From Bdellovibrionota bacterium FG-1 (GTDB taxonomy: Bacteria; Bdellovibrionota; UBA1018), in NCBI GenBank assembly GCA_051382295.1, contig JBBCAW010000067.1, forward strand, positions 1-44,397: a stretch of DNA of 44,397 bases, given 5' to 3'. This document shows, in pieces, positions 8,461-44,334 of this stretch. A program made the translations under genes and the position numbers. How positions within the stretch are numbered: the stretch's first letter is position 1; each line of letters begins with the position of its first letter. Under the pieces are notes generated by a model. It made no database searches. It saw nothing but the letters and a program-made list of their open reading frames with translations, and was not told the origin of the DNA.

Positions 8461-8461
8461 T

Positions 8462-22645: not shown

Positions 22646-23896
22646 ATGGGTGACAACGTGAAAAGTGATAAGGTGCTCGGTGCAATGGTCAAGAATGGTT
22701 CGGTGCTGTTGCGATGCGCTGGAAAATCCCTAGGCTGTGTGCAGGCAGGTTTTCAGAGCGTCGTGCAGGGCACTCGCCGGCTGACTGGGGCCAGCGCCAG
22801 TGGGATGAAGGGGCTCTTTACCGGTGGTCTGCGCAAGAAGCAGGGACTCAATCGATCCGAGGTTAAAACGCGAATTGCCACGCTTGAGAATGATATCCGG
22901 GAAGGCTATCTCAAGGTGGGGAAACTGGGTTCCGGCGTCGAAAACAAGGAGCAACTCTTTGAGGTTCCCGAAATTCGCGAAGTCGTGGAAAAAATAAAAA
23001 TCCTCGAAAATCAGCTCAATTCCCTGAAAAAATATCAGCTAAAACTCGAAAACGCCGAGCTACAAAATGTTCCAGCCGATGCGGTCGCATTTGATGAGAG
23101 TGCGGGTTTGGGAACCTCGGGTGATAAATCCAAAAAGAAAATCAAACACGCGATAGAGGACGGCTTGAAGAAGGCGAAATTCCAGCTTCAGTCGGATGCG
23201 ATTATTTTTCGTAAAGCGCTCTATGATCTTTTGGATCACGAGATGGAAATTAAGAGACTTGCTGCAAGTGAATTGGGGAAGCTCGGTAATAAACATGCAG
23301 GTCCTGCGCTCAAGGCCGCTTTGGAATATGGGGATCCCCAGCTCCAGGCCGAGATTATTAGTTCACTCGTTCGGTTGGAGGATCGGGATACCTTCAGTAT
23401 CTGCAAAGACTTTGTAAAGCACGAGTATGCTCCGATCCGGACCGCTTCGATTCGAGGGTTATATAAGGCGGGGCGCAATAACTCGGTGCCGTATCTGATT
23501 GATGGCCTGAAAGATGATAGCGTCGAGGTGCGTAACTCGAGCGCGATGTTCTTGGGTTGGTGCGAGGCGCCAACGGCAGTTCCAGCTTTACTGCAAGCTG
23601 CAAGCGATGCCGACCGGCGCGTGCGAAAAAGCGCGATTCTTTCGCTTTCGAACATTCGTGACGAGGCTTCTGTGTTGCCGCTGATCAGGCTTCTGGACGA
23701 GGACGACGAAGACTTGCGCAAGGCTACTTTGACGGCAATTGAGCGGATTGGCGGAGTCCCGGTTCCTTTCAAGGGCGGCGAAAAGGCTGATCGGACCGCT
23801 CACGTCGAGGAACTCAAGGAGTGGTGGATTTCTAAGATGTACGAGGGCCCCGCGCCCGTTTCGTCCTCTTCTCCGTCTGGGGGGGCCGCAGAGTGA
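22646..23896 (+). CDS. mad23: Coiled-coil plus HEAT-repeat protein, Mad23-like
   Basis: N-terminal coiled coil, then about 6 HEAT repeats (e.g. LIDGLKDDSVEVRNSSAMFLG); first gene of the coiled-coil run, divergent from mamI. Symbol from architecture and synteny. Confidence 0.7.
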   Translation: MGDNVKSDKVLGAMVKNGSVLLRCAGKSLGCVQAGFQSVVQGTRRLTGASASGMKGLFTGGLRKKQGLNRSEVKTRIATLENDIREGYLKVGKLGSGVENKEQLFEVPEIREVVEKIKILENQLNSLKKYQLKLENAELQNVPADAVAFDESAGLGTSGDKSKKKIKHAIEDGLKKAKFQLQSDAIIFRKALYDLLDHEMEIKRLAASELGKLGNKHAGPALKAALEYGDPQLQAEIISSLVRLEDRDTFSICKDFVKHEYAPIRTASIRGLYKAGRNNSVPYLIDGLKDDSVEVRNSSAMFLGWCEAPTAVPALLQAASDADRRVRKSAILSLSNIRDEASVLPLIRLLDEDDEDLRKATLTAIERIGGVPVPFKGGEKADRTAHVEELKEWWISKMYEGPAPVSSSSPSGGAAE

Positions 23897-24864
23897 AGCG
23901 CATGGAAGTTTTGACGAGTAGGCTCCCGTTCCTTCATAAAAAAAAAGAGGATGTCATCGGCCAGATTTCGGAGCGACTCTCGAAGATCGTGACCAAGATC
24001 CAGGCAAACGCGTCTTTAAGTGAAGTTCGGGAGGAGTACGATGTGGCTGTGGGTCATTTAGTGGCTCTAGCTGAGACAGAAAGGGATACGAGGCTTCAGG
24101 CCCGGGTTCGTAATGTCCAATCGACGTTAAAAAATGCGGGTACGTTGGTTGAAAAGAAGGATCAGTTGCGTCTTGAAATCTCTCGAATCATGACGCATTT
24201 GGGCCAAATCGCTGAAACGCCCCGGTTTTCTGAGGCTGCACCAGTGGCCACGGCAGAGAGTATAGAAGAAGTCATTCGCGCAAAAGATGAAATAGACGAG
24301 ACGATGGCGACCGGCAGGCAGCTCACGGAACGCCTTCAAGAGCTTCAAGATCGTACGGCCTTCATGGCGCAGGAGATTGAGAAAGTTACCGTCGAAAATC
24401 AGGCGATGTTCGAGGAAAACAAGGCGCTCCGGGAGCAGTATGCGCAAGCCGTTCAGACGCATGACGAGGGTAAAGAGGTTTCTCGGGTCCTTCAAAACAA
24501 GGTTGCAACCGCGCAAATCGAGTGCAATCGGCTTCTTCTTGAAATTCAGTTTCTGAGCAGTGAGCGGGCGGGCGTGCTTGAAAATCTGGATGGCGATTAC
24601 GAAAGTCTGGTGAATCTTTCAAAGCGTTATCGTGAATTACAGCGTGGCTACGGACTGGTGAAGGACGAGGCTGGAGTCTACGAAGATTTATTGGCGCAGC
24701 TCGATTCGTTGCTGGGACGAACGCGTCAGGAGAAGAAGGTCCTTCTTGAGAAAACGGCTGAATCCGAGAAATCCTTGGAATCCTTGATTGAGGAGTTACG
24801 GGCCGTGATCAAGAAAGGTAAAGTGCAATTCTATGCTCAACTGGAAGGCGGATCAGAAAAATGA
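23893..24864 (+). CDS. mad24: Coiled-coil protein, Mad24-like
   Basis: Heptad-rich 323 aa; GTGA overlap with the mad23-like gene. Symbol by synteny. Confidence 0.55.
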   Translation: MKRMEVLTSRLPFLHKKKEDVIGQISERLSKIVTKIQANASLSEVREEYDVAVGHLVALAETERDTRLQARVRNVQSTLKNAGTLVEKKDQLRLEISRIMTHLGQIAETPRFSEAAPVATAESIEEVIRAKDEIDETMATGRQLTERLQELQDRTAFMAQEIEKVTVENQAMFEENKALREQYAQAVQTHDEGKEVSRVLQNKVATAQIECNRLLLEIQFLSSERAGVLENLDGDYESLVNLSKRYRELQRGYGLVKDEAGVYEDLLAQLDSLLGRTRQEKKVLLEKTAESEKSLESLIEELRAVIKKGKVQFYAQLEGGSEK

Positions 24865-25373
24865 AGGTTGAAGAAATCAAGAAGGGCTTGAGAGGACTCT
24901 CCGAGCTTCGGATCGAGGATCTGACCAAGGTTTCGAGCGAGGTTCTTCAAGGCAACATCGAAAGCATGTTGTCTGCTATTCGCGTTTTGGAATCGCAGCT
25001 CAAGGACACCATGGAGGTGAACGCCGCCCTGCGGACTGAGTCGAAGATGCGGGATGCCGATATTTTGGCGCTGAAGCGCGAAAATCAGGACCTTCAATTT
25101 CGCCTGAGAGAGTTAGAAAAACAGGTTCCTCTGGTTGACGATGTGGAGAAGCGCTTTGAAATCGCGCTTGAAAGAATTGAAGAGTACAAAACATTGTTTC
25201 AGCGGGAAAAAGACAAAACCCGGGGCCTGGCGGTCCAGGTTGACAGTCTGGCCGGGGCGCTCAAGAAGACCGAGGAAGAGCGCAACGATGCGTATAAGGA
25301 AGTGGTCGTGCTGATGAATAAGCTCGAGCAGCCGGAGCAGTTAGCGGAGCAGAAGGGCATACAAAATGGGTAA
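24861..25373 (+). CDS. mad25: Coiled-coil protein, Mad25-like
   Basis: 170-aa heptad protein (LSELRIEDLTKVS...ERNDAYKEVV); ATGA overlap. Symbol by synteny and size. Confidence 0.55.
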   Translation: MKVEEIKKGLRGLSELRIEDLTKVSSEVLQGNIESMLSAIRVLESQLKDTMEVNAALRTESKMRDADILALKRENQDLQFRLRELEKQVPLVDDVEKRFEIALERIEEYKTLFQREKDKTRGLAVQVDSLAGALKKTEEERNDAYKEVVVLMNKLEQPEQLAEQKGIQNG

Positions 25374-26130
25374 TGGCTCAGAGCTGAAAAGGAAGCTGTT
25401 GGATAGCTGGGATCAGATTCGGAGCAAGTACCCGATCGTGGTCGCCGCCGAAGTGGTTGCGGGCGATCCGGTGAAGACCGATTTTTTGAGCTGTATTGAT
25501 GGTCTGAAAACCGCCGAAGAGATTGAGCAGTTTTTCACCCTGAATGCGAGCGAAGCGCATCTGATTTTCACGGATCTGATGAACGTGGGGGCGATTCGCT
25601 TTCTCGATGATGGCGAGCGTCTAGGTTATCTCAAACGCCATGCCATCGAGCTTGAGCGAAATCTGGTTTTCCTTCGTTCGGAGCGCGAACGGCTCCGCGG
25701 TGAGTCTTTGTATCTCAATAAGCAGACCCGCGAGAAAATGCTTGAGGTCGAGGCGTTTAAGACGAAGATTCCGGCGCAGGAGGAAGCCTGCCAGCAGTTG
25801 ACGGGCAATCTGAATTCGCTTCAGGCGAAGTCCCAGGGGCTTTGGGAGCAAAACGCGGAACTTTTTGGGGTCGCTAAAGACGTCAAGCACAAGACGGACG
25901 TGATCAAGACCGGACTGGAGAAGTTGGAGGATCAATTTCCCAAGGTCATGAGAAAAAAAGTCAAGGTGGCGGAACGGTATCGGAAGAACGAAGAAATGCG
26001 CCACACGAGCAAGGACAAGAACGCCGCCGTCGAAAAGAAGCTATTTGAATATCACGATGCTTTGAGTGAAGTCCGCGAATACCTTGAGGACACGAAGTTA
26101 CGAGTGAAGGGTTTTTCGGAACAGGACTAA
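25366..26130 (+). CDS. mad26: Small N-terminal domain plus coiled coil, Mad26-like
   Basis: 254 aa; winged-helix-like N-terminus (FLSCIDGLKTAEEI...L...GAIRF), then a coiled coil. Symbol by synteny. Confidence 0.55.
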   Translation: MGNGSELKRKLLDSWDQIRSKYPIVVAAEVVAGDPVKTDFLSCIDGLKTAEEIEQFFTLNASEAHLIFTDLMNVGAIRFLDDGERLGYLKRHAIELERNLVFLRSERERLRGESLYLNKQTREKMLEVEAFKTKIPAQEEACQQLTGNLNSLQAKSQGLWEQNAELFGVAKDVKHKTDVIKTGLEKLEDQFPKVMRKKVKVAERYRKNEEMRHTSKDKNAAVEKKLFEYHDALSEVREYLEDTKLRVKGFSEQD

Positions 26131-26148
26131 AGAGAATGAGGGTTTGTA

Positions 26149-28014
26149 GTGATCAGGGAATATCCAATCGTCCTAAAAACAGTCCATGGCCGAAAAGAGG
26201 CGCTCGTCCGCCAAATTAGGGCTGATTTGGTGGCCTTGAACCGGGTTTATGAAATCCTTCCGGGTCATGAGGAAATCGAGACCACTCTTTGTCAGGATCT
26301 AGACTGGCTGGTGCAGCAGGATATTGCCGAAGAAATTAAACTCGCTTTCTATAATCCGATTGATTCGACCGATATTTTCCTGGAAAAAAAATATCGTCTC
26401 GGGCTTTTTAATACCACCGCGCGCGCCGGGGAGGTGTCACAGGATCTTGATCAGTGGCGCTTGCCGGACTCTTACGAGTTTGACGTTTTCGTATATTTCA
26501 AAAAGAGTTTTTTGGCTTTGAATTCCCAGGAGCAAGGACGCCGCCTCAGCCGCTTTCACTTCGGTTGGTTTGATTTGGAGAGTTTTTCGACGGATTTACC
26601 CGACAGCCTGCCGTCAGCGGTCAGCATTCAGCCGTCAGCCGTTAGCTCTCAGCCGTCAGCTGTCAGCTCTCAGCTGAGCGTCAAGAAGCACGAGGCGAGT
26701 CATTCCATGACTGGACCGTTCACCTCGGAAAATGGCAAGTCGCTTTTAATCGCCTCTTACACAGATTCTAGAAAGTTGATCGGTGAGTTTATTCAGACGG
26801 CGGCGACGCTTGGCCTCGCCCCCGTGCAATGGACTTACTCTGAGGGGCTTAAGCCTTTAGGCGCGACTGGAGCCTCCGCTATTCCGGACTTTGCTTCCAG
26901 CTACACCTATGACGATCGGCTCTTTTCGTCGCAAAAGCGAGTGTCGCCGTGGGATTTGCTCGGGACGATTCGAAATGAATGCCAGAACGGGCATCGAAAG
27001 AATACGCTCTATTTGCTCGAGGATTTTCATTATTATCTGACGCGCGAAAACCTGTCGGGGCAAGAATTTGCCGAAATGATTTCGATGATCAAGTCCGTGC
27101 CCGAGCCCCTGAAGCGCGCGGGAAGTTTTCTGGTGATTCTGGCCCCGAGCCTGGATTTGCCCCCTGAAGTTGCACCCATCTTTGATACGATCAAGGGGGA
27201 GTCGAGGCTGAAGTCCACGCAGTTGCTCGAGCGTTATGGGCGTGATCTCACGAAACTCGTTCTTGAAAAGAAGATCAAACCCGTGGTGGGACGAGATTCA
27301 GAGATTCGGGAGTGTCTCAAGATTCTTTCGCGGCTCGAGGGCAATAATCCGTTGCTCGTGGGCAAGGCCGGGGTGGGAAAAACCGCGATCGTCGAGGGCT
27401 TGGCGATCCAGATCGTGAGGAATGAGGTGCCTCCGGCATTCCGAAATAAGCGGTTGATTGCCCTCAATTTGAATGCCGTGATTTCGGGAACCAAATATCG
27501 GGGGGAGTTTGAAAAGCGGTTGGAAGGCTTGCTCGAAGAGGTGATGTCGAACGCCGAGAGCATTATCGTCTTCATTGACGAGATTCATACGTTGCTCGGA
27601 ATGGGGAGCACGGAGGGGTCCGCAGGGGCTGAAAACATTCTTAAGCCCTATCTGGCGCGGGGAGAGTTTCCCTGCATCGGTGCGACCACCTATGACGAAT
27701 ACAAAAAGCATATCGAGCCCGACCGGGCTCTCGTCCGGCGGTTTCAGGTGGTCGATATTGCAGAGCCTAATGCGAGCCAGACGGTTGACATCCTGATGGG
27801 GATCAAGAATATTTATGAGAGTCACCATCGAGTCAAGATTTCAAACGATGCCGTCGTGAAGTGCGTGGAGGCCGCTGGAATGTTGACGCAGCAGTATTTC
27901 CCCGGAAAGGCGATCAAGCTGCTCGATAGCGTTTGTGCGTCGGTGTCGTTTGCGGGAAAAGACTCAGTCACTCCCGAGAGTGTCGTCACGGAGTTTAAAA
28001 GGTTGTCTCAGTAG
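26149..28014 (+). CDS. Hybrid AAA+ protein: unknown N-domain, Ycf46-like degenerate AAA domain and a single ClpA/B NBD1
   Basis: C-terminal half has YGRDLT, PVVGRD.EI, NNPLLVGKAGVGKTAIVEGLA, GTKYRGEFE, FIDEIH, IGATT..EY, AL.RRFQ, P.KAI.LLD. The middle region has W..SEGL, LLEDFH, LVILAP.LDLPPE. No NBD2. Confidence 0.85.
   Translation: MIREYPIVLKTVHGRKEALVRQIRADLVALNRVYEILPGHEEIETTLCQDLDWLVQQDIAEEIKLAFYNPIDSTDIFLEKKYRLGLFNTTARAGEVSQDLDQWRLPDSYEFDVFVYFKKSFLALNSQEQGRRLSRFHFGWFDLESFSTDLPDSLPSAVSIQPSAVSSQPSAVSSQLSVKKHEASHSMTGPFTSENGKSLLIASYTDSRKLIGEFIQTAATLGLAPVQWTYSEGLKPLGATGASAIPDFASSYTYDDRLFSSQKRVSPWDLLGTIRNECQNGHRKNTLYLLEDFHYYLTRENLSGQEFAEMISMIKSVPEPLKRAGSFLVILAPSLDLPPEVAPIFDTIKGESRLKSTQLLERYGRDLTKLVLEKKIKPVVGRDSEIRECLKILSRLEGNNPLLVGKAGVGKTAIVEGLAIQIVRNEVPPAFRNKRLIALNLNAVISGTKYRGEFEKRLEGLLEEVMSNAESIIVFIDEIHTLLGMGSTEGSAGAENILKPYLARGEFPCIGATTYDEYKKHIEPDRALVRRFQVVDIAEPNASQTVDILMGIKNIYESHHRVKISNDAVVKCVEAAGMLTQQYFPGKAIKLLDSVCASVSFAGKDSVTPESVVTEFKRLSQ
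26615..26677 (+). repeat. Nine tandem CAGCnnT heptamers, in frame (63 bp)
   Basis: cagcggt cagcatt cagccgt cagccgt tagctct cagccgt cagctgt cagctct cagctga, encoding a SAVS(I/S)QP linker. Confidence 0.85.
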
Positions 28015-28049
28015 CCTTTTGAGTTAGAATTTCCGGGAGGGGTGCAGCA

Positions 28050-30140
28050 ATGAAAAGTAAAAAAAAGATCCTCGTCGTGGACGCCAATAGTCAGACTTTG
28101 AAAGAGTTCATAGGTGAATTTGGCCGCGACTATGAGGTTGCTTCTTGTGCGGACGGCAAATCAGCGCTCGAACAGCTCGAAACTTTTCAACCTGAGGTGT
28201 TGGTGGTCGATGAGGCGCTTGTGGATACACCCTTTACCGAGATATTGGGGCAGGCCGCCAACGGCGTGATCAGGATTGTGACGACCGCAGGGCTGCCGGA
28301 TACCGAAAAGGTTTTTGATTCGGTGAGTGCCAAGCTCGCGGACACATGCTTTGTCAAGCCGCTCAACTATCTCGAACTGCGAAACGTGATTGAAAGGATC
28401 GCGGCGCTGCGGGCCGGTCATGCAGTCGGCGATGCCGACATTCAAGCCGTCTACCAAAAAGTACATACCATCTTTGATAAGGTGAGCGACGCGGAAAAGC
28501 TTCAAAAAGAGGCGCAAAGTCAGCTAGAAAAGGCGCGAAAACTCGAAGAGCAGAGTTTGGCTCGGGTCGAGAACGTGGCGCGCGACCATCAGAGGTTCAA
28601 ACAAAAAATCAGTGACCTCGAAAAAGAAATGGGGTCTAGCAAGGATAAAGCTAAACAGCTCCAGGGACAGAACGAGGTTCTGACCAAGGAAAAAGAGAAG
28701 GCTCAGGACACCCTGAAGGAAATCGAAATCCAGGTCGATTCGACCAAAAGCGCGACTTTGCATGTTTCTGCGGATCTCAAGGTCAGCGGGCGTCAAAAGA
28801 TCGACGGCAAGGACTCGGTTTTGTTCGTGGATGACGAAGAAGACCTTCGAAAAATGTTTTCTGACGTATTTAAGAGCAAATTCAATATTCATCTCGCGGA
28901 CTGTGCGGATGCGGCCGTTATGGCGCTGACGCAGCATCCCGAGGTGGCTTTGGTGGTCACGGATTGCCGGATGCCTCGAAAAACGGGGATTGAGTTGTCC
29001 TATGAAATTCGTAAAACCCATCCCGATCTGCCTATTTTTCTCCTCACTGGATTTGGCGAAATGGACGCCGCGATCAAGGCGATGAATGAAGGTGCCATTC
29101 AACAGTACTATGGCAAGCCCTTTAAATCGGTCGAATTGAGCAAGGCGATCCGTGAGGGGATTGACAAGAGTGATGACGCCGTCGCGCAAAAAACCCTGAT
29201 TTCGGCCAAGAAGGGCTTCGTCGTCGATCGAATCAAAGACTTGGTAGCGCAGGTGGCGAGCCTCGAGCACAACTATTCCAAGGTTCATGAGGAGGAGGAG
29301 CGGCTGCGAGGGGAATCGGCGAAAATGAGCCAGGAGTTGGTCGAGATCAAGACCGAAAGAGATGAATTGAGAGTCTCGGTCGTTAAAGAACGAGAACAGA
29401 TGCGTGACGAGATGGCCGAGGAGAAGCGCAAAGTCGACGCCGACATCGCCAAACGCATGGATGAAGCCACGAGGCTTTTAGAGACCGAAAGGCAAAAATA
29501 CAAAGACGAACTCGTGGAGTTGGAGCTCAAGTTCAAGGCGGACAAGGAAAAAGCCGAACTTCAGTTGGCCGAGATGCGAAAGAAGATGGAAGCCGAGCAG
29601 GCCATCGAGCAGCAGAAGCTGGTCGATGAACGTCAGAAGCTCGAGCTTCAGTTAGCCGAAACCCGCAAGCAGATGGAGATCGAGAAGGCCGATATTGAGG
29701 CCAAACTGGTCATCGAGCGTAAAAGGGGCGAAGAAGAGCTCGCCCGGGTTCAAGCGGATATTGCCGGGACCAAGGCCAGGATTGAAGCGGAGATTCGGCA
29801 GGAGCTGATCGAAATGAAAAGAGTGGCCGAGGCGGAGATCGAAATATTGAAGAAGACCGTCACGAAGGATCTCGACAAACTTCGGGAAGAGTCGATCAAA
29901 AAAGAAAAAGAACTCAATGAGAAGATCAATCAGGTGGGCCGTACGCTTCGTGAAAAAGAAGATGAACTCAACACGAAGAAGCGCTCCATGGCCGAGATGG
30001 AAAAAGAAATGGTGAATATGAAACGAGAGCGCGACGTCGCGGTCAAAGAGCATGATTCCATGAGGGGTGAGTACGACCTTCTGACTCAGTCTCGAGATGC
30101 GCTGGACGCGGAACTCAGTGAATTGAAAGGATCCAGATAA
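28050..30140 (+). CDS. REC-coiled coil-REC-long coiled-coil protein
   Basis: REC1 (ILVVD, VVDEAL, KP), canonical REC2 (FVDDE, VTDCRMP, LTG, KP), then more than 300 aa of E/K/R-rich heptads; TAATG coupling to the mad28-like gene. Confidence 0.85.
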   Translation: MKSKKKILVVDANSQTLKEFIGEFGRDYEVASCADGKSALEQLETFQPEVLVVDEALVDTPFTEILGQAANGVIRIVTTAGLPDTEKVFDSVSAKLADTCFVKPLNYLELRNVIERIAALRAGHAVGDADIQAVYQKVHTIFDKVSDAEKLQKEAQSQLEKARKLEEQSLARVENVARDHQRFKQKISDLEKEMGSSKDKAKQLQGQNEVLTKEKEKAQDTLKEIEIQVDSTKSATLHVSADLKVSGRQKIDGKDSVLFVDDEEDLRKMFSDVFKSKFNIHLADCADAAVMALTQHPEVALVVTDCRMPRKTGIELSYEIRKTHPDLPIFLLTGFGEMDAAIKAMNEGAIQQYYGKPFKSVELSKAIREGIDKSDDAVAQKTLISAKKGFVVDRIKDLVAQVASLEHNYSKVHEEEERLRGESAKMSQELVEIKTERDELRVSVVKEREQMRDEMAEEKRKVDADIAKRMDEATRLLETERQKYKDELVELELKFKADKEKAELQLAEMRKKMEAEQAIEQQKLVDERQKLELQLAETRKQMEIEKADIEAKLVIERKRGEEELARVQADIAGTKARIEAEIRQELIEMKRVAEAEIEILKKTVTKDLDKLREESIKKEKELNEKINQVGRTLREKEDELNTKKRSMAEMEKEMVNMKRERDVAVKEHDSMRGEYDLLTQSRDALDAELSELKGSR

Positions 30141-31345
30141 TGTCGGAAACTCATGAAACGGTCGCCGTAGGGGGCGAGCTTGGCACGTCCTCCTGCAAGT
30201 TTTGTTGCGAAGATACGGTGCTCCTGTTTTCGTCCGTGGTCGGCGACGCCTTGACGGAGTCGATGGAAAATAGCTGGCGGCACATGAACCGCTCCGTGGA
30301 CTCCCGTTGGGTGAGAAACCTCGCGGTTTTTGATGATTCCCGAAGCGCGTGGCGCTACGTCGGAGCCATGACCCGGCGTTCTGAAAAGACCGATTGGTTT
30401 ACCCACAAGGGCTTGATCACCAATCATGACGATGCGTTCGTGGCGATCAAAGCCGGCCTGTTTTTGCTTTTTCTGGAAATGGAGAAAAAAGGAAAACCCT
30501 TGGATCGGATCGGCTTGGGATTTGGCATCACGGTTCGACACGGGGAAAACGTGATCGAAAAGTTTTTTGCCTATATCAAGGATCATCTCGTGGTACGAGA
30601 CGGCAAAAAATACCTCGCGATCAAGGCCAAGAATGTGGCGCTCAACGAAGTCCGTGAGATTGAGATTCAAATGGATTTTTGCGTGATGCAATACCAGGCC
30701 TACGGCGCGTATATGGCGCTCCTCTTTAGTAAGTATAATATGGCGGTTCAAAACACCTATGTCGTCGATATCGGACATGGCACGTGGATCAAGCTGCCGA
30801 TTATCGACAATGAAGCGGAAATCGGACTTTCTGATTCCTTTACCGAAGGCATTTTTACGATCACCCGCAATATCAGCAATGTGATTTTCGAGAGTAGTGG
30901 CCAGAAGTTCAAGATTCCCGAGCAGCGGTTGATGGAGAGATTGCCGAGCAAGGATTACAAAATCGAAGTGCCGGGCACGGGCTTCTTTGATTTTACGAAA
31001 CTTCTGCAACAGCAGACGGCGGTGCTCGCGCGCAATATTAGTGACAAAATAGCCGTAGATATCGCCACCTTATCCGCCAAGGGGCAGTCGATCGATTACT
31101 TCATTATTATTGGCGGCGGGGCTCATCTTTTGTTTGAAGGCATCAAGAAGAACATTGGTGAGTACTTTAATTGGAGTCAAGAAATCCTGGATCAGCGCGT
31201 GATGGGTGCGGAAGCGACGGGCGTGGACCCCCGGCATATCAACTGCGTGGGCTTTATGCTCCTGGCCCGGGATCAGATCGCGATGGACAGTGGTAAGGAT
31301 GTTGTGCCAGGATTTTCGGTCACAAATATCATTCAAGAATTTTAG
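30140..31345 (+). CDS. mad28: Actin-like magnetosome protein, Mad28-like
   Basis: Atypical phosphate-1 VGGELGTSSCKF, SSVVG, phosphate-2 VVDIGHGT, adenosine IIGGGA; about 400 aa; follows mad23-26-like genes. Confidence 0.72.
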   Translation: MSETHETVAVGGELGTSSCKFCCEDTVLLFSSVVGDALTESMENSWRHMNRSVDSRWVRNLAVFDDSRSAWRYVGAMTRRSEKTDWFTHKGLITNHDDAFVAIKAGLFLLFLEMEKKGKPLDRIGLGFGITVRHGENVIEKFFAYIKDHLVVRDGKKYLAIKAKNVALNEVREIEIQMDFCVMQYQAYGAYMALLFSKYNMAVQNTYVVDIGHGTWIKLPIIDNEAEIGLSDSFTEGIFTITRNISNVIFESSGQKFKIPEQRLMERLPSKDYKIEVPGTGFFDFTKLLQQQTAVLARNISDKIAVDIATLSAKGQSIDYFIIIGGGAHLLFEGIKKNIGEYFNWSQEILDQRVMGAEATGVDPRHINCVGFMLLARDQIAMDSGKDVVPGFSVTNIIQEF

Positions 31346-31381
31346 GCAAGAATTTTAAGCGAGAATATTAGGGAGGTTTTT

Positions 31382-31909: not shown

Positions 31910-31926
31910 GTGGATAGAAAACGCGC

Positions 31927-32940: not shown

Positions 32941-32971
32941 AACGAGTATCTAGACATGGAGGTCATTTACG

Positions 32972-34333: not shown

Positions 34334-34342
34334 AGGGAGAGA

Positions 34343-35611: not shown

Positions 35612-37217
35612 GACGATACTCGTCGTCGATGACGACCAGATGATTTTGCAATATCTGGAGCAGGAGTTAAAAAGAAATTTCTTTAACACAATTTGTGTAG
35701 GCACCGGCAAGGAGGCGTTGCTGCGGGTGCATGAGGCGGATGTCGTGTTTTTGGATATTGGGCTGCCCGATATGGATGGATTTGAGGTCCTCGCGCAAAT
35801 CAAGGCGGCGCACGGCTCGGATGCCGAGGCGATCGTTATTACCGGTCACGGTAATCAGGAAGTCGCCATTCGCGCGCTCCGGATGGGGGCGATTGATTAT
35901 ATCGAAAAACCGATTCAGCTCGATGACCTTCGTGCCGCTTTAGGCCGAGCCCAGGAGATGCTGGCAAAAAAACGCAATCTCATCGGCAAGGACACGGTTT
36001 TGGTGATCGACGACGAAAAAATCGTGGCCGATAAATTAGGAAAGCTGCTGGAAAAAGAAGGTTACCAGGTTTTTTGTAGTTACGATGGTCTGCAGGCCAT
36101 CGACTTCATTCAAAAGAATAAAGTCGACGTCGTGGTTTCGGATATTAACATGAAGGGCATGGACGGAATCGCAGTGTTGACGCAGGCGAAGAAACTTTTT
36201 CAAGATATCGAATTCATCATGATGACGGGCGACAGTGGCCAGGAGATCGCCGTCAAGTGCCTGCGCGCGGGGGCCATGGAATATTTGACTAAGCCAGTGG
36301 ATGTGGATGAGCTGCTGTGGTCGGTGCAAAAAGCGGTTGAGAAGATCAAACTGTCCCGCAATTCATTATACCGCAACCGGGAACTAAAGCTCTCCGGCGA
36401 AATCGTGGCTAAAATGAACCAGGAGCAGGAGCGGATCATTCAGGAAAGAAGCGCCGCCCTGACCCAGACGCAGGCTCAGCTGGTTCACACTTCAAAACTC
36501 GCGACTCTGGGCGAGATGAGCGCCGGGATGGCGCACGAGCTGAATCAACCGTTGGGGGGTATCTCGCTCGTGGCGCAGACGATGCGAAAACTCAAAGATA
36601 GGAATGCCCTCACCGACGAAGAATTAGAAAACTCGATCCGAGATATAGAGACCTCCGTCAAGCGGATTTCCAAGATCATCCAGCATGTTCGGACGTTTGC
36701 CAGGCAGGAAGTCCTCAAATTTACCTTGCTTGAGGTGAATACCACGATCGAGTCCGCGTTCATGCTCCTCGGCGAACAGCTTAAACTTCGGGAAATCGCG
36801 GTCGTTACCGGTTTTGGCGTGGATCTGCCAAAAATCGAGGGCGAACCTTATCAGCTTGAACAGGTTTGGATTAACTTAATCTCCAATTCGAGAGACGCCA
36901 TGGACTCGATGGCAGAGGAGTGTAAGATCAGTCAGCAAGAATACCACAAGAAGCTCTCGATCTCCACGAGGGTGGAGGGTGAACAACTCCTGATTGAGGT
37001 ATCGGACAATGGGATCGGTATGTCTGAAGCGCAGAAAGCGAAAATCTTTGAGCCGTTTTTTACCACGAAACCGCCAGGCAGGGGCATGGGTCTTGGAATG
37101 TCGATCACTTATGGAATTTTAGAATCCCATAAAGCGACCATTCAAGTCCAAAGTTGTGAAAAAAAGGGAACGACCATTACGGTTAGCCTGTGTATTCCGC
37201 AAAGGAAAGATATATGA
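35604..37217 (+). CDS. Hybrid kinase REC-REC-HisKA-HATPase
   Basis: Two REC domains; H-box [26 protein letters not shown]. Confidence 0.93.
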
Positions 37218-38347
37218 AACCTACCAAAATCATCCTGATCGATGACGAGGAGCTCCTGCGCCAAAGGTTGGCCAAGCTTTTTACCTTGGATGGCTATGAG
37301 GTCATTCAGGCCAAAAATGGTACGGAGGGCCTCAAGCTCTTTGAACAGGTTTCGCCGGCGGCGGTGGTGTCGGATATTAAGATGCCCGGGATGGATGGAA
37401 TCGAGGTCCTTCAAAAAATTAAGGAGAAGTCCCCTTCCACGGCGGTTATTTTGGTGACCGGTCACGGGGATATGGAGTTGGCGATTAAGGCGCTGCGCAT
37501 GGGGGCCTTCGACTACATCACTAAACCGATCGCGTATGAGGAGTTGGCCATATCGGTGAAGCGGGCATTGGATGCCCAAGCAAACGAGAATGAGCGGAAG
37601 CAGTTGCAACAGCAAGTTTTTCAATCGGCGAAGCTCGCGTCGGTCGGCACCTTGGCCGCCGGTATCGCGCATGAGTTGAACAACCCGTTGGCTGTGGTCG
37701 TGGCCTATGCTGAGCAGCTCGTGGATATGTTGAAAAACCCCGAGGATGCTAAAAATACCGAAGAAATGATCGCGCACTTGGGCATGATTTCCAAGTCCTC
37801 CATCCGGATGCAGACGATCGTCAAACATATGCTCACGTTTTCCAGAAAATCCGAGTCCTCCGATTGGCGCGAGCTGAATGTTAATGATGGAATCAAGAGT
37901 TCATATTTATTTCTTCAAAGAAGTTTTGAAAAACTCGGTGTTACCGTGGCTTTTTCCTTAGCGGACGTCTTGCCTCCTATTTGGGGCGACATGGGCCAGC
38001 TTGAAAGTGTCTTTACTAATCTCATGGGCAATAGCCGTGACGCGTTCGAAACGCTCAAGGACAAGCGGGAAATGCGTGTTTCAGTGGCGTCGTCCGTTCG
38101 GCAGGATGCTCAAGGCGGCAGTGTCGTGATTGTTTATGAGGACAACGCGGGCGGAATGAGCGCCGAAACCACCCAAAAGATGTTTGATCCCTTCTTTACA
38201 ACCAAGGATGTCGGCAAAGGGACCGGTCTCGGCATGTCCGTGACGTTAGGGATCGTCGAGGCGCATAAAGGGACCATCACAGTCACCAGCGAATTAGGTA
38301 AGGGAACACAATTCACGTTAACCTTCCCGGTTTATCAACCCAAGTGA
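37214..38347 (+). CDS. Hybrid kinase REC-HisKA-HATPase
   Basis: REC (IDDE, SDIKMP, TGHG, KP); H-box GIAHELNNP; ATGA overlap supports a start at 37214. Confidence 0.93.
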   Translation: MKPTKIILIDDEELLRQRLAKLFTLDGYEVIQAKNGTEGLKLFEQVSPAAVVSDIKMPGMDGIEVLQKIKEKSPSTAVILVTGHGDMELAIKALRMGAFDYITKPIAYEELAISVKRALDAQANENERKQLQQQVFQSAKLASVGTLAAGIAHELNNPLAVVVAYAEQLVDMLKNPEDAKNTEEMIAHLGMISKSSIRMQTIVKHMLTFSRKSESSDWRELNVNDGIKSSYLFLQRSFEKLGVTVAFSLADVLPPIWGDMGQLESVFTNLMGNSRDAFETLKDKREMRVSVASSVRQDAQGGSVVIVYEDNAGGMSAETTQKMFDPFFTTKDVGKGTGLGMSVTLGIVEAHKGTITVTSELGKGTQFTLTFPVYQPK

Positions 38348-38365: not shown

Positions 38366-39997
38366 GTGAGTAAAACTGAAAATCAGAATCAGCAAGAAAA
38401 TATCCGCGAGATTTTGGGTCAACTGTCGCACATGGAATTATGCGGAATTTCGAGTTCTGTCGTTGACAAGCTTAATTCAGTCGCACGAGGCTTGGAAGCC
38501 CAAGCCCAAGCCCAAGCCCAAGCCCAAGCCCAAGCCCTGATTGAGCAAGCGTGTGATGGTATTCTGGTTCTGGATATAGAAGGTAAAGTTATCTCTGTGA
38601 ATGAATCATTCGCCAATATGCATGGGTTTACGGTTGATGAAATTATCCATAGTGGATTGCAAGGGATTGACGTCGATATCATCCCGAGCGTCATGACCGA
38701 TCGAATGAGTCGGCTCATGGCCGGGGAGATGCTAACGTTTGAGGTACGGCACTATAAAAAAGATGGCAGCATCTTTCCTCTTTCGGTGACCAGCAACCTT
38801 GTCGTGTCCGACAATAAAAGAATGGTGATGGCGCTTCATCGTGACCTCACACAGCAGAAGGCTGTGGAGGCCGAGCTACGGCTTCATAGTGCGATTCTTA
38901 TGAATATGGCCGAGGGAGTGTACCTCATTCGGACGAGTGATGGCGTGATTGTTTTTTCCAACGCACTTTTTGACCAGATGTTTGGCTATGCGCCAGGCGA
39001 ACTCCGGGGCAAGCATGTGAGTATCGTGAATGCACCTGGAGCCCAGGATGCAAAAGAGGTCGCAGAAAATATTATAAAGCATCTTGCCCAAGAAGGATCA
39101 TGGAGTGGTGAGGTGCATAGTATTAAGAAAGACGGGACCCCTTTTTGGTCTTCCGCAAAGGTTTCGACATTCGATCATATCGAATATGGCAAGGTCTGAA
39201 TTTCGATGCATCAGGATATTACCCAACGTAAAGAATCAGAAGCGCTGATTGAGAAGCAAAAAGTTACTTTGGCAGAGACACAAGGACAACTTTTCCAATC
39301 CTCCAAGTTGTCCTTGCTGGGCGAAATGGCCGCTGGCATGGCCCACGAGATGAATCAGCCGATGTCTGGCATTACGCTGGCAGTACAAATGATTAAAAAG
39401 CTCAAGGAAAAAAATCTTTTGAACGACGGAGAACTGGAGAGCGCCCTCCAGGATATCCTTGCCTCTGTAAAACGATGTACCAAAGTGATTCGCCATGTTC
39501 GCGCATTTTCGAGGCAGGAGCGTTCTCTTTATAGTCCAGTCAACGTCAACGAGACGATTGAATCTGCCCTTATGTTGATGGGGGAGCAACTTAGACTTCG
39601 TGGCATTGAGATCATGAAGGATTTGACCGAGGGTCTTTCTCCAGTCATGGGGGATTCCTTTCAACTCGAACAGGTTTGGATTAACGCTATTACCAACGCC
39701 AGGGATGCGCTCGATGAGATGGGAAATAAATACTCCAAGAAGCTCTCGATCCGTTCGAAGTTCGATGGTGAGTCTGTGCTCGTCGAAATTTCCGACAATG
39801 GTATTGGTATGTCTGAAGAGGTGAGGAAGAAGGTTTTTGAGCCGTTCTTTACCACCAAGCCGGTAGGTCAAGGGACAGGCTTGGGGATGTCGATCATTCA
39901 CGGAATTCTGCAAGCGCATCAAGCAGAAATAGAAGTTAAAAGCGAAATGAAAAAGGGGTCGACGATTTCCGTCAAGTTGTGGATACAGCGGAAATGA
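38366..39997 (+). pseudogene. PAS-PAS histidine kinase split by one in-frame TGA (39197-39199)
   Basis: Reads ...EYGKV*ISMHQDITQRK... in a single frame, with the stop inside the PAC strand of PAS2. The downstream part has H-box GMAHEMNQP and an intact HATPase. Confidence 0.85.
38496..38537 (+). repeat. (AAGCCC)7 microsatellite encoding a poly-AQ linker
   Basis: Seven exact hexamers; protein LEAQAQAQAQAQAQAL. Confidence 0.9.
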
Positions 39998-41709
39998 ACG
40001 GTTGTAAAGTATTAGTGATTGATGATGAGCAGCTGGTGCGGGACGGGTTGGGAAAGCTTCTTGTTCTGGATGGCTATGACGTGGCCACTGCGGAAAATGG
40101 CCTTTCTGGTTTGGAGTGCTTTGATCGATTCGCTCCGTGTGTGGTGATCAGCGATATCAAAATGCCGCAAATGGACGGACTTGAGGTGCTTAGTAAAATC
40201 CAGGAAAAATCCCCAGGAACATGCGTGATTCTGATGACGGGACATGGGGACACGGATCTGGCGATTCAGGCATTGCAGCTGGGGGCTTTTGACTATTTTA
40301 GTAAGCCGGTCGACTATGAGACGTTACTGCTAGCGATCCGTCGAAAACAGAACGGGGAGGCGGCGGCTCGGGACCGACGAAGGTTGCGAATGCAGGCTTT
40401 TCAGTTTGAAAAGTTGGCTTCTATCGGTGCGCTCGCCAAGAAGATTGAACAGCTCCTTCCTTTGAAGAATATTGCGACTTGTCTCAGCGAACTCGCCCAA
40501 GCAGTCGGCTTGATGCAGGCGGAGATCAAAGAGCTATTGATCGAAATGGTGCCTAAAGCCTTGATCAGCCCAAGTCAGGAGCTGAGGGTCAGTGACGCTA
40601 AAATTCTGGTGGTTGATGATGAGCCGGAAATTCGGGATTTGTTGGCCGAGGCGATCTCAGACAAGGGTCACGAGGTTCGGACAGCCGTAGACGGTGAGGA
40701 TGGTTTGCGGGTTTATGAGCAATTTGGGCCGGATCTAGTGATCTCGGATCTTGATATGCCCAAGTTGATGGGGCTAGATATGGTCAGAGCAATCAGGGGC
40801 CGGGAAGGAAAGACTCAGGCTGACGACAAAAGCCCGCCCGATGTGATTTTTTTGACCGGCTATGGAGACCCCCAATCAATCGTCAATGCTCTTCGGCTGG
40901 GGGGTTGTGATTTTGTCTATAAACCGATGGATTTTGCCAAGTTCCAGGTGTGTATTGAGCGCGTCTTGCAGAGACGGGCTGTGCGGGAGTGTTTGAAAGC
41001 TCAAAGTTCTGAGTCGGCGAGACATGCATCTATGGGTACCTGGGCTGCGGGTATGGTGCGCGAGTTGGGCGATCCGCTGGCTGTTGTCATGGCTCATATC
41101 GAACGAGTGCGGACGGTGCGCCCACAGGGCGATGAAATGATAGAATGCCTTGGCGTGGTGGCCAAGATTTTTGGTCGCATCCATCGGGTGGTTCAGCAGC
41201 TGTTGACCTGCGCCAACCCATCCGAGTATGCGGTTTTGCGGGACATGGATATCAATGAAGTGATCCGCAGTTCGTTCAAAAAACTCGATTTTTTACCTTC
41301 TTTTGTGCTGGCCAGCGACTTGCCCCGCGTTCGGGTTGATTCAGGGCAACTGGAGAACGTCTTTGTGAATCTGATGAGTAATAGTCACGACGCATTTCGT
41401 ACGCTTTTGGATCCCCGCGAAAAACGGGTTACGATTTCATCGACCGTCCAGCTCCAGGGTCAAGGGGGTGGCCACGTGGTGATTGTTTACGAGGACAACG
41501 CGGGCGGAATGAACGCCGAAACAGTGCAAAAGATTTGTGATCCCTTCTTTACGACCAAGGAGGTCGGCACGCATACCGGTCTCGGCATGTCCGTGGCCTT
41601 AGGTATTGTAGAATCACACAAAGGGACGATTGCGATTGAAAGCGAGCTGGGTAAGGGGTCTCGGTTTACGTTGACTTTTCCCGTTGAGCAGCGCTCGGGG
41701 GGTGGTTGA
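39994..41709 (+). CDS. REC-REC hybrid pseudokinase (H-box His replaced by Arg)
   Basis: Two REC domains; H-box reads GMVRELGDP instead of GIAHELNNP; HATPase boxes retained. Confidence 0.85.
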   Translation: MNGCKVLVIDDEQLVRDGLGKLLVLDGYDVATAENGLSGLECFDRFAPCVVISDIKMPQMDGLEVLSKIQEKSPGTCVILMTGHGDTDLAIQALQLGAFDYFSKPVDYETLLLAIRRKQNGEAAARDRRRLRMQAFQFEKLASIGALAKKIEQLLPLKNIATCLSELAQAVGLMQAEIKELLIEMVPKALISPSQELRVSDAKILVVDDEPEIRDLLAEAISDKGHEVRTAVDGEDGLRVYEQFGPDLVISDLDMPKLMGLDMVRAIRGREGKTQADDKSPPDVIFLTGYGDPQSIVNALRLGGCDFVYKPMDFAKFQVCIERVLQRRAVRECLKAQSSESARHASMGTWAAGMVRELGDPLAVVMAHIERVRTVRPQGDEMIECLGVVAKIFGRIHRVVQQLLTCANPSEYAVLRDMDINEVIRSSFKKLDFLPSFVLASDLPRVRVDSGQLENVFVNLMSNSHDAFRTLLDPREKRVTISSTVQLQGQGGGHVVIVYEDNAGGMNAETVQKICDPFFTTKEVGTHTGLGMSVALGIVESHKGTIAIESELGKGSRFTLTFPVEQRSGGG

Positions 41710-43260
41710 ATGAAATTTCGGACGAGATTATTGATTCTATTTTTGAGTATGACTCTGCCGTTTTTTGTCACGATGGGCGTGGTTTATTGGCAAACCACCC
41801 AAGTCTTGGCATTTAAAGCAGCCGCTGCACGATCCGAACTGAACTTGCTTTATCTGACCCGATTTCGATCCAAGGTGCGAGACCGCTTTCTCGTGACTTA
41901 CGATGTCTTACTTAATTTTGACCCCCATGACTCATTTCAGAAGCTTAAAATTGCGGAAAGTGAAATTAGCCACGATGTCGTCAAATTGAGGGTTTTCTAC
42001 GGAGAAAATCCGGTTGCCATCACCGCGAGGCAGGAACTTGTAGAAAGTCCTGCCAAGCCTTCGATCATCGCCTATGGCGAGGTCGATCGCGAGTTGGATC
42101 AAGTTTATGAATACTTGAAAAGCGGGGACTTGATTCATGCAAAAAAAATTCTAGCGACGGCAAAAAAGGATAAATTTTATGGGCAATTTATCCCGACCAT
42201 CACTGAGGCCATTACGGCATTAGAGTTGTCCAGTCAGAATAGTTCACGAGGCCTTGTCGTCAAGATCTCCATTATTAAATGGCTAGTGATGGCTTTGTTT
42301 TTGTTGGGATTCGTGCTTTCCGGATCGGTGGCCCTGGTGTTGTTCACGAATCTTGTAAAGCGGCTGAGAGCGCTAGAAAATGCGGCCCGGTTAGTCGGCG
42401 CTGGAAAGTTAGACGTCATTTTGAATGTAGAAGGGCATGATGAGCTGGCGAGCCTTGCGCAGACCTTTAATTTTATGGCCGCAAGCTTGAAAAGCGACAA
42501 GGCCAAGCTCGAAAATAAGTCCGCAGAACTTGTACAATCTCAGTTGCAGCTTTTTGAGACCGCGAAGTTGTCCACGCTTGGCGAGATGTCCGCTGGGATG
42601 GCCCACGAAATGAATCAGCCGATGTCGGGTATTACGCTGGCGGTGCAGATGATTAAGAAACTTAAGGAAAAAAATCTTTTGAGCGACCACGAACTTGAAA
42701 GTTCCCTTCAGAATATCCTCACCTCCGTTAAGCGCTGTACCAAGGTGATTCATCATGTTCGCGCCTTTGCCAGGCAGGAGAGTTTCGCGCACGGTCCGGT
42801 CGATGTCAACGAGACGGTTGAATCGGCGCTTATGCTGATGGGGGAGCAGCTCAGACTTCGTGGTATTGAGATCACGAAAGATTTGACTGAGGGCCTTTCT
42901 ACGGTCAAGGGGGATGCATTTCAATTGGAACAGGTTTGGATCAACGCCATGACCAACGCCAGGGATGCACTCGAGGAGATGGGAAGTGAATACCCCAAGA
43001 AGCTTTTGATCCGTTCGCAGGTCGACGGTGGGCAAGTGCTTGTCGAAATCTCTGATAACGGAATAGGGATGTCTGAAGAGATCCTGAAGAAAGTTTTTGA
43101 GCCATTCTTTACTACTAAGCCGGTAGGTCAAGGGACGGGCTTGGGGATGTCGATTGTTCACGGAATTATTCAATCGCATCAGGCAAAAATAGAAGTTAAA
43201 AGCGAAGTAAACAAAGGGACGACGATCTTCGTCAGGTTAGCTATTACGGGGGAAAAATAG
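41710..43260 (+). CDS. Membrane-bound sensor histidine kinase (TM-periplasmic-TM-HAMP-HisKA-HATPase)
   Basis: Two TM segments; HAMP DELASLAQTFNFMA; H-box GMAHEMNQP. Confidence 0.93.
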   Translation: MKFRTRLLILFLSMTLPFFVTMGVVYWQTTQVLAFKAAAARSELNLLYLTRFRSKVRDRFLVTYDVLLNFDPHDSFQKLKIAESEISHDVVKLRVFYGENPVAITARQELVESPAKPSIIAYGEVDRELDQVYEYLKSGDLIHAKKILATAKKDKFYGQFIPTITEAITALELSSQNSSRGLVVKISIIKWLVMALFLLGFVLSGSVALVLFTNLVKRLRALENAARLVGAGKLDVILNVEGHDELASLAQTFNFMAASLKSDKAKLENKSAELVQSQLQLFETAKLSTLGEMSAGMAHEMNQPMSGITLAVQMIKKLKEKNLLSDHELESSLQNILTSVKRCTKVIHHVRAFARQESFAHGPVDVNETVESALMLMGEQLRLRGIEITKDLTEGLSTVKGDAFQLEQVWINAMTNARDALEEMGSEYPKKLLIRSQVDGGQVLVEISDNGIGMSEEILKKVFEPFFTTKPVGQGTGLGMSIVHGIIQSHQAKIEVKSEVNKGTTIFVRLAITGEK

Positions 43261-43739
43261 TGAATCACACGGACATTTTGGCAAACGACGGCAATACCAA
43301 TGGGAGTGATGAAAAGAGGGCTCCTCAGGAGCCGCTTCAGTCCGAACCTCTCAAGACGCCGAGAAAAACAGGGGATCGTATCAGAGTTTTAGTCATCGAC
43401 GACGAAGAGCCCATCCGTACAGGTTTGATGAGGCTTTTGTCTCTGGATGGCTACGACGTAATGGGCGCGGAGCATGGCGCGCGGGGTATGGAGGTTTTCG
43501 CACAGACTTCTCCGGAGGTCGTGATTACAGATATTCGGATGCCGACCATGGACGGGATCGGAGTGCTGAAAGCAATCAAGGCAAAATCACCTGCAACGGT
43601 GGTCATCATGGTCACGGGCCATGGAGATAGCCGTACCTTTCGCGATGTTCTGGCCTTAGGGGCTTTTGACTACCACGAAAAGCCCGTGGGTTATGAGGCG
43701 CTGGTTTTATCGATCAAACGCGGACTTGGATTGGTATAA
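43260..43739 (+). CDS. Single-domain response regulator
   Basis: VIDDE, ITDIRMP, TGHG, KP; no output domain. Confidence 0.88.
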   Translation: MNHTDILANDGNTNGSDEKRAPQEPLQSEPLKTPRKTGDRIRVLVIDDEEPIRTGLMRLLSLDGYDVMGAEHGARGMEVFAQTSPEVVITDIRMPTMDGIGVLKAIKAKSPATVVIMVTGHGDSRTFRDVLALGAFDYHEKPVGYEALVLSIKRGLGLV

Positions 43740-43800
43740 GCGGGTCCCCCAGTTTTTGAGTGGTAATTATCAGTATGTGGTTATAGCATTTCGTTACATC

Positions 43801-44334
43801 ATGAAAAGTGAAGCAAGGAAACGGGTCTTAGTCGCGGGAAGCCTTCAAGCCGTTCGGAATTTGATTGAGGAGTCGTTGAGCCCTGAATTCGTGATTTTTT
43901 TTGCGGATGATGGTGCGAGTGCAGTCGAGACTACGAGGATCCAGCAACCTGATATCGTGCTCCTGAATTTAGACTTGCCACGGATGGGTGGCGTCGCCCT
44001 ATGTGAGAGCCTACGTATAAGTATGGGTATGTGCGTCGCGCCTATCCTTATCGTGTCGGAACGGGATGACTCGGCTAGCCGCACGCTCGCTTTCCAGGGA
44101 GGCGCGGACGACTACGTGGTAATCCCCTTTGCGGCGTCTGAACTCTTGGCTCGGGTGCGTGCGAAGGTGCGATCTACCCAGGCCAGGGTGCCCGAAAATT
44201 CCCTGAGTTGCGGGGATATCTCCCTTGATTTTGATCGGTTTGAGATTCAAGTGGCTGGTGTTACGAAGCGGATATGGATGGACCCGCCCTTCGTTGCAAG
44301 GAATTTTTTGAATCGTGATTTTCAAGTCATTTGA
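43801..44334 (+). pseudogene. OmpR/PhoB-like regulator with an atypical receiver and truncated DNA-binding domain
   Basis: Phosphoacceptor position reads LLNLDLP (D to N), the acidic pocket is lost, and KP becomes IP. The wHTH begins (CGDISLDFDRFEI) but the ORF ends before the recognition helix. Confidence 0.65.

Follow-up and report, generated by a model that had tools for sequence, protein, structure and literature searches.

A candidate receiver-controlled histidine kinase cassette associated with magnetosome genes in Bdellovibrionota bacterium FG-1 and in other phyla

LvrB of Leptospira (PDB 8VC9) is the prototype of the Rec-controlled histidine kinases, and is activated by phosphorylation of its N-terminal receiver via an upstream kinase (PMC13269768). 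The magnetosome clusters of Bdellovibrionota FG-1 and FG-2 have been reported to lie near "atypical two-component systems", runs of 5-10 adjacent genes, and magnetosome production has been shown for FG-1/FG-2 (PMC13200544). We analyzed one contig of FG-1 (GenBank assembly GCA_051382295.1, JBBCAW010000067.1), all 44,397 nucleotides of which make up the window. The genome, here termed G000, is assembled in 158 contigs (4.44 Mb, 97.7% complete), and the window is the entire contig C67. On its + strand a mad-type cytoskeleton operon (22646-32940) is followed by an array of signalling genes; this is very likely the array reported for FG-1 and FG-2, given the same phylum and the same position. Judged from sequence, it comprises two layers, a conserved four-gene cassette (genes A to D, 32972-38347) and a set of local duplicates. 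The recurrence of the cassette in three phyla, and only in mam-bearing genomes among those sampled, likely marks a dedicated kinase cascade of magnetic bacteria.

Part of this picture is not new. A first-pass annotation of the window had proposed a candidate undescribed system, and section 18 of PMC13200544 already records two-component gene clustering beside Bdellovibrionota magnetosome clusters. The main text of that paper gives it two sentences, with no domain analysis, core/add-on split, cross-phylum link or mechanism. Response-regulator genes have likewise been described in the magnetosome cluster of Ca. Liberimonas magnetica DUR002, whose authors guessed at a role in magnetochemotaxis (bioRxiv 2022.07.08.499144); in the portion of the preprint covered here, they are not recognized as orthologous to genes of other phyla. 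The gene B homolog of Liberimonas magnetica is 46% identical, and may be one of the DUR002 cluster genes. A term search of the available text of 10.1101/2024.04.27.591411, PMC13691129, PMC7602337 and PMC10278575 brought up no mention of the cassette, and no signalling was found in the available sections of three papers that cover Mad proteins (PMC12748827, PMC9840458 and PMC12713370). The words "kinase", "phosphoryl", "receiver" and "response regulator" occur 0 times in the main text of the first of these. We found no paper treating genes A to D as one cross-phylum orthologous cassette, in a search outside which most subscription papers and the supplement of PMC13200544 lay. As a local oddity the gene array has in part been on record; what the sequences newly show is a cassette that is conserved across phyla and tied to magnetosome genes.

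LvrB is the top solved-structure match for both gene C and gene D (E 1.3e-41 for gene D). Like LvrB, each has an N-terminal receiver (REC) with the phospho-acceptor Asp, a putative signalling helix and a HisKA/HATPase core, and no separate sensor. Gene D aligns end to end with LvrB, its helix being 7 residues shorter; gene C is 32 residues longer than gene D, which is off the steps-of-seven rule. In LvrA-LvrB-LvrC an upstream kinase feeds the receiver-headed kinase, and the same is proposed for the cassette. Unlike LvrB, gene C has two receivers and is accompanied by a paralogous, catalytically empty partner (gene B), and there is no adjacent LvrC-like anti-sigma gene. The NCBIfam LvrB model scores 183 against a cutoff of 500. 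On this comparison the cascade is likely to be LvrB-like and receiver-controlled.

Gene A (32972-34333, +) encodes the predicted input histidine kinase, PAS-HisKA-HATPase by Pfam. Gene B (34343-35611, +) is REC-REC-helix-PAS-like, with neither an enzyme nor a DNA-binding domain. Gene C (35604-37217, +), which served as the marker in the genome tests, is a REC-REC-helix-histidine kinase, and gene D (37190-38347, +) is a REC-histidine kinase, of NtrB type in G000. The absence of any DNA-binding domain from this core is in line with the earlier description of the array as one without transcriptional output. In phylogenetic analysis gene A forms one clade with kinases of Nitrospirota and of G1103 (a genome from an order of Desulfobacterota, see below), with support of 100/99; the tree holds 45 rows, and a motif filter left out several orthologs, such as gene C of G002 and G1103 and gene A of G411, G501, G521 and G632. 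The kinase core of gene A is constant and its sensor is lineage-specific, being PAS in G000 and GAF plus three PAS in G1103. All five Nitrospirota copies carry two membrane helices, and the mostly cytoplasmic character that had been ascribed to the system is thus not a general trait.

Both receiver aspartates of gene B are invariant in 84 aligned homologs, as are D51, D180 and H311 of gene C in 92. The REC-REC-helix heads of the two proteins are homologous over 297 columns. A structure model of gene B has a predicted local distance difference test (pLDDT) value of 87 and its tail has PAS neighbours, the single-sequence model of that tail having a pLDDT of 35; a complex prediction for genes B and C gave a score of 0.02 and a mark of 0.32. 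The top Foldseek match for the tandem-receiver head of gene B is PleD of Caulobacter (REC-REC-GGDEF). The global fit is poor, however (template modelling score ~0.3), and gene B has no GGDEF domain. The second receiver of PleD is non-phosphorylatable, whereas both Asp residues are invariant in gene B. Within G000, the receiver of gene D is the best match of the fourth-position receiver in G039, G411, G501, G521, G549 and G1103 (49-52%). Across phyla this receiver is ~50% identical, with a conserved first helix, and the kinase behind it varies: PAS-HisKA in G039, a PAS-HisKA_2 kinase in Nitrospirota, and kinase-REC-REC-Hpt in G1103. A constant middle flanked by interchangeable input and output parts points to a core that processes signals.

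The occurrence of the cassette was compared with that of magnetosome genes in a total of 1,156 genome searches, in which a few genomes were counted twice. A magnetosome cluster was counted where mamB and mamM were paired and full-length, where mamB occurred with mamA, or where scores exceeded the cutoff; MamB alone at loose thresholds is unspecific, matching 32 of 221 and 25 of 51 genomes. Within its own phylum full-length gene C was found in 4 of 401 genomes; all four have mamB and mamM and belong to the 5 of 401 that carry the actin-like gene 30140 (see below). It was likewise found in 4 of 221 Nitrospirota, all among the 7 genomes with mam genes. The order of G926 (a Syntrophobacteraceae-labelled locus, Desulfobacterota) yielded a single genome among 61, G1103. 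This is also the only one of the 61 with MamB matches, as had been predicted before looking, and mamA exceeds the cutoff on the same contig. Gene C was found in 0 of 291 Desulfobacterota and 0 of 131 Fibrobacterota, two samples searched for gene C only. G006, with a match to the kinase core of gene C alone and no mam genes found, was not counted as a carrier. All nine full gene C carriers have mamB and mamM, and all nine hold genes A, B and C together with the D receiver.

At the protein level the gene C profile matched 267 proteins at E<=1e-100 among 8,000 scored, and the 120 listed show 95-100% coverage and 51-66% identity; the gene B profile gave 147 matches. Named homologs of genes C and B occur in Ca. 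Magnetobacterium casense, bavaricum and LHC-1, in Magnetominusculus xianensis, dajiuhuensis and LBB02, and in Magnetomonas plexicatena, Magnetomorum HK-1 and Liberimonas magnetica. A metagenome scan with gene C, whose 80 listed loci were generic receivers (best segments 25-43% identity), was not used. We consider it highly probable that the cassette is tied to magnetosome genes across phyla. To this extent the earlier suggestion of signalling dedicated to magnetosome organisation or magneto-aerotaxis holds, and on firmer ground than when it was put forward, the core being tied to magnetosome clusters and mamB/mamM being present in every full gene C genome.

The first four signalling genes occur in the same order (A, B, C, D-type receiver protein) in G002, G018 and G039, and in these genomes and G1103 the core adjoins or lies within magnetosome clusters. 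In G018 a single contig carries the core with the mad operon on one side and the mam operon on the other; on contig C52 of G1103 the cassette is tail-to-tail with the mad23 cluster, 13-28 kb from the mam genes. The first-pass annotation had stressed that the mad operon runs directly into the array. As a conserved feature this does not stand. The junction is a 206-base spacer in G002 and ~17 kb in G039, and in G018 it holds a Fic gene along with two further kinases and a dnaJ on the opposite strand. Nitrospirota have the cassette complete but unlinked (in G521 at 0.51 Mb versus 2.42 Mb, 1.9 Mb apart). The operon ends with one overlapping REC-PAS-kinase in G410 and with none in G370.

The reading we tentatively prefer, and which falls just short of being probable, is that the cassette is common to magnetosome-gene bacteria of at least three phyla and acts as a kinase cascade that throws a threshold switch on motility. 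In this scheme kinase A would pass phosphate on to the tandem receivers of both B and C, and phosphorylation of its receivers would activate kinase C, which in turn would phosphorylate the receiver heading kinase D; D would then act on a lineage-specific target, most likely a motility threshold switch rather than the magnetosome chain. This order is proposed because of the gene order and the LvrA-LvrB-LvrC precedent. Gene B, with the same head as C and no catalytic tail, may be a phosphate sink or a modulator of C, and the add-on kinases 39206 and 41710, which have the same H-box helix as C, may be extra inputs with its partner specificity. One can speculate that four phospho-sites and a catalytically empty paralog sharpen the threshold.

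Several observations weigh against this reading. Glu150 of LvrB, at the knee between the helix and the DHp domain, is Ala in both C and D; for want of this feature, C and D can at most resemble LvrB in action and are not classed as members. The large searches scored 3-28 candidates per genome. Gene C was found in 0 of 51 SAR324 genomes, including 4 with MamB over the cutoff, and the cassette was not found in mam-bearing G370, G410, G593 and G422; G632 shows genes A and B only, at a contig end. In all, at least 8 magnetosome-gene genomes are without the cassette, which is therefore not universal but dispensable. More cluster-bearing non-carriers have probably been missed, since own-phylum clusters were detected solely via the 30140 actin (5 of 401) and PMC13200544 reports partial or whole magnetosome clusters in 21 of 772 genomes. 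Carriers within a phylum are kin, and the genome-level count amounts to about three independent lineages; Fisher values, which presume independence, are therefore given no weight. Homologs in Spirochaetales, Verrucomicrobiota, Poribacteria, Desulfobulbaceae, Fibrobacteria and Omnitrophota lie outside the mam-gene check.

Some of these points would also suit a cassette that is a general signalling unit of redox interfaces, hitchhiking with magnetosome islands or sharing their niche and having no magnetosome-specific role. Its unlinked position in Nitrospirota (1.9 Mb in G521), its dispensability in at least 8 magnetosome-gene genomes, the many sediment homologs outside the mam-gene check and the mobile-element remnants at both flanks of contig C67 are all in keeping with this. 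However, 0 of 9 carriers lack mam genes, the cassette is kept at 51-66% identity across phyla and is linked in two of them, and its survival in Nitrospirota once the linkage had been lost speaks against mere hitchhiking. We regard this explanation as quite improbable.

As to the output of the preferred threshold switch, the signal may be redox or oxygen and the response motility, as suggested by neighbouring genes. Next to the core are a REC-GGDEF gene in G411, HD domains in G039, hemerythrin in G018, and single-receiver genes; hemerythrin also occurs on contig C18 of G000 beside the mam operon. These neighbours tilt the balance toward oxygen-linked motility control. Flagellin and CheW genes are present in G000, with CheW on C115 and C154. 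That the case for motility is drawn from neighbour genes counts against it, as does Liberimonas, reported to be without flagella, which is a poor fit to a flagellar output and tilts toward control of biomineralisation.

A cassette dedicated to magnetosomes could instead govern biomineralisation or the uptake of iron, its effect being relayed by a transcription factor or a sigma regulator whose gene lies elsewhere. The precedent is LvrB itself, which acts via the anti-sigma factor LvrC, a target encoded apart and found only by profiling (PMC13269768). The G018 cassette, between mad and mam operons and near feoB and a DtxR-type regulator, is suitably placed for such a role, and gene B occurs in Liberimonas, which is reported without flagella, mamK or mad28. 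Yet no conserved DNA-binding or anti-sigma partner lies beside the core in the regions compared, and several magnetosome-gene genomes are without the cassette. On balance we think this alternative rather unlikely.

Two further observations concern the surroundings of mam operons. In G000 a hybrid kinase fragment, an Hpt, a REC-HisKA and a hemerythrin gene lie directly upstream of the mam operon at the end of contig C18 (L017:200-2806), and the signalling region may be larger than contig C67 shows. In G370, which has no cassette, the mam operon has a cheR-cheA-cheW-cheB cluster within a few kb (G370:C2 ~51900-57600, L124-L125).

Between 22646 and 44334 the window holds 19 open reading frames (ORFs) on the + strand, with intergenic gaps of -28 to +36 bp and, where ATG 43801 is taken as the start of the last gene, of 61 bp in front of it. 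Six HATPase cores were identified by Pfam (ORFs 32972, 35604, 37190, 39206, 39979 and 41710). Pfam also gives 10 receiver stretches, and a weak eleventh is the N-terminus of ORF 28050 (E 1.6e-4). Hydrophobic segments above threshold occur in 41710 alone of the 19 ORFs. The continuous same-strand run of the first-pass annotation, with gaps of at most 61 bp, six kinase cores, 11 receivers and one membrane kinase, is thus confirmed. Its kinase count needs qualifying: all six cores are present, but 39979 is without the phosphorylated His and one kinase is split by an in-frame stop. Nor is the array a phosphorelay in the strict sense, as Pfam detects neither an Hpt domain nor a C-terminal intermediary receiver in its 10 genes; CheA, CheW and receptor domains are likewise absent from the array by Pfam. 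The acidic pair, Asp, Thr and Lys are all retained in 9 of the 11 receivers, the exceptions being the degenerate first receiver of 28050 and that of the last regulator (ORF 43666), without Asp and Lys. The longest run of REC/kinase ORFs in G000 is this one, with 9 (10 counting the PAS-only ORF), and the runner-up has 4. No terminator-like or promoter-like site was found in the 31-bp junction between operon and array (32941-32971), in a scan that is weak because genome-wide site counts are near the shuffled expectation; the junction does contain a GGAGG ribosome site. The third-position GC content (GC3) of the core genes, 0.62-0.64, is that of the mad operon (0.55-0.65), and the add-on genes differ (0.49-0.58).

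ORF 28050 (28050-30140, +) is a Bdellovibrionota-cluster-specific protein in which a degenerate receiver, a coiled coil, an intact receiver and a second coiled coil follow one another. The earlier model had the array phosphorylate this protein as its output and thereby remodel the Mad cytoskeleton. Such a role would accord with the second receiver, whose catalytic residues are all kept in the 4 aligned orthologs, and with the position of 28050 among coiled-coil and actin genes like the chain builders of Desulfovibrio magneticus RS-1 (PMC12748827). In G370, moreover, a 30140-type actin is joined in one protein with a receiver and coiled coil resembling those of 28050 (C37 44882-46936, L107:4882-6936; hhalign 95.5%), which ties the 28050-type domain to actins, and the REC-PAS-kinase of G410 overlaps the operon end. 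The Asp is lost from the fused receiver, as it is from a half-receiver followed by a long coiled coil among the mad genes of G1103 (C52 L233:16503-17690, Asp to Glu), which suggests structural use; the G1103 gene has no detectable homology to 28050 beyond the receiver.

The distribution of 28050 also speaks against this model. Full-length homologs are confined to Bdellovibrionota-labelled records, the closest being from Oligoflexia, Bdellovibrionales and Bdellovibrionota FG-2 (60% identical in FG-2). A scan of genome contigs gave 3 full-length homologs among the 80 loci listed, the other 77 being receiver-only. Its position is kept in four relatives and shifted by a few genes in G370. None of the 5 non-Bdellovibrionota carriers has a full-length homolog, REC-only matches being found there, and yet 28050 is present in G370 and G410, both without the signalling core. 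Since 28050 and the cassette are distributed independently, 28050 can be a local target only. It may be one such target in G000; it is not the general output, and the earlier model, in which the array would remodel the Mad cytoskeleton through it, is distinctly improbable.

The six remaining genes of the array have no fixed counterparts in G002, G018 and G039. An add-on PAS-PAS-kinase (38366-39997, +) is split into ORFs 38366 (PAS-PAS) and 39206 (kinase) by a TGA at 39197-39199, within the second PAS, which breaks a single frame (GC3 0.49-0.54 there). Recoding of this TGA was rejected, as TGA terminates other genes of the same operon. Next is a REC-REC-pseudokinase derived from gene D (39979-41709, +), in which Arg replaces the phosphorylated His and which nests in the gene D clade. 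It is followed by a membrane kinase with two transmembrane helices and HAMP (41710-43260, +), and by a single-domain receiver of gene D type (43260-43739, +), 52-57% identical to the gene D and 39979 receivers. The 41710 core is a duplicate of the 39206 core (77% identical; ratio of nonsynonymous to synonymous substitution rates 0.16), and both nest inside the gene C clade in the tree. Further sensor kinases with a gene C-type core and varied PAS inputs are scattered over G002 (C62, C91, C220) and G018 (C173; L126-L130), which suggests repeated recruitment of new sensors to the same pathway.

The array ends with an OmpR-type regulator (43801-44266, +), which had been described as degenerate and truncated. 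Both hold, the truncation being due to a multi-copy repeat at the contig end (44267-44397, also on C41 and C150). Its receiver lacks the Asp and is probably not a phosphorylation target, and the gene ends before the DNA-binding domain, the missing half of which was not found in the G000 assembly. The last 131 bases of the window are 99% identical to C41:94064-94194, and 109 bases are in common with the end of C150; since the stop at 44334 falls within this repeat, the truncation reflects an insertion or an assembly break. The repeat is probably an insertion sequence. Its continuation on C41 resembles a transposase C-terminus, and it may be of IS110 type.

The mad-type operon opens with a mad23-like HEAT-repeat protein (22646-23896, +; HEAT repeats by Pfam), 32-35% identical to HEAT genes within the magnetosome clusters of G521, G632 and G1103. 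Three coiled-coil genes follow (23893, 24861 and 25366; 23893-26130, +), which are mad24/25/26-like by position, the mad numbers beyond mad23 being deduced from gene order rather than from comparison with reference proteins. Their order is kept in G002, G018 and G410 at 58-71% identity. Next is a Clp-type AAA ATPase (26149-28014, +; AAA and lid domains, partial ClpB/ClpA matches), whose cluster-specific N-terminus of 141 residues matches a 128-residue gene in the G1103 mad cluster. Beyond 28050 lies an actin-like protein of ParM/Alp7A type (30140-31345, +; MreB-like_C, with ParM/StbA/Alp7A as Atlas neighbours), 82-85% identical among relatives. The operon closes with a 175-residue protein and a second, divergent actin-fold-like protein (31382-32940, +; no Pfam match), whose order is kept in all five relatives examined; the actin-like motifs of the latter were assessed by eye. 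The stretch 30140-32940 resembles a plasmid-type segregation cassette inside the mad operon.

The Mad20/23/25/26/28 module of RS-1 likewise unites HEAT, coiled-coil and actin-like genes in an operon (PMC12748827), to which the G000 operon adds the receiver-bearing coiled coil, the Clp-type ATPase and ParM-like actins. Mad genes present in the window include HEAT Mad23, coiled-coil, FeoB-like and actin-like genes. The 30140 protein was rejected as Mad28, its fold beginning near residue 9 and there being no match to the Nitrospirota cluster actin. A Volactin-family actin with a 60-residue N-terminal extension (17282-18436, +), 49% identical to that Nitrospirota actin, is probably the true Mad28. 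Together with a MinD/ParA ATPase it belongs to a conserved unit of four genes (16909-17271, 17282-18436, 18306-18701 and 18698-19615) that recurs in G018, G039, G370 and G410. A mamAB-type operon lies on another contig (C18 8076-19912), with best matches to MamA, MamQ, MamB/M twice, MamE/P/O-like proteins and a magnetochrome domain, all scoring below the NCBIfam cutoffs. C67 could not be shown to adjoin C18, both ends being repeats. In an alignment of four genomes, the region upstream of the mad operon has one stretch common to three and no clear operator.

Elsewhere in the window, feoB and a DtxR-type regulator fused to FeoA (19618-22255, -) are divergent from the mad operon and kept in G018, G410 and G370. 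A block of Rrf2 regulator, ABC ATPase, CobW-type GTPase, cysteine desulfurase and Fe-S protein (6605-10456, -) is found again behind the G410 mad operon (67-91% identity). Also present are AbiEi/AbiEii and TumE-type toxin-antitoxin pairs (567-1982 and 13355-14016), a neutral/alkaline ceramidase gene (3668-5725, -) and, at the left contig end, a 127-base repeat (1-127) that also occurs at 10 or more other sites.

Two open questions are the link between chemical sensing and the magnetic compass of magnetotactic bacteria and the regulation of magnetosome genes outside Alphaproteobacteria. The mam/mad/man lists consist of structural and transport proteins, and the cassette would be the first named regulatory candidate for the deep-branching lineages. 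Gene C is a sharp sequence marker, having singled out one magnetosome-gene genome among 61, and as all four core proteins are predicted to be soluble in G000, their wiring lends itself to in vitro assays for which the organism need not be cultured. A bolder and doubtful extension would make the cassette an ancestral, hitherto unnamed "magnetotaxis switch" of the deep-branching magnetotactic lineages: a multisite kinase cascade passed on, by descent or by transfer, along with mad-type clusters in at least five phyla. Such a switch would convert a redox or oxygen threshold into north-or-south swimming, and in Bdellovibrionota would also be wired to the receiver-bearing coiled coil.

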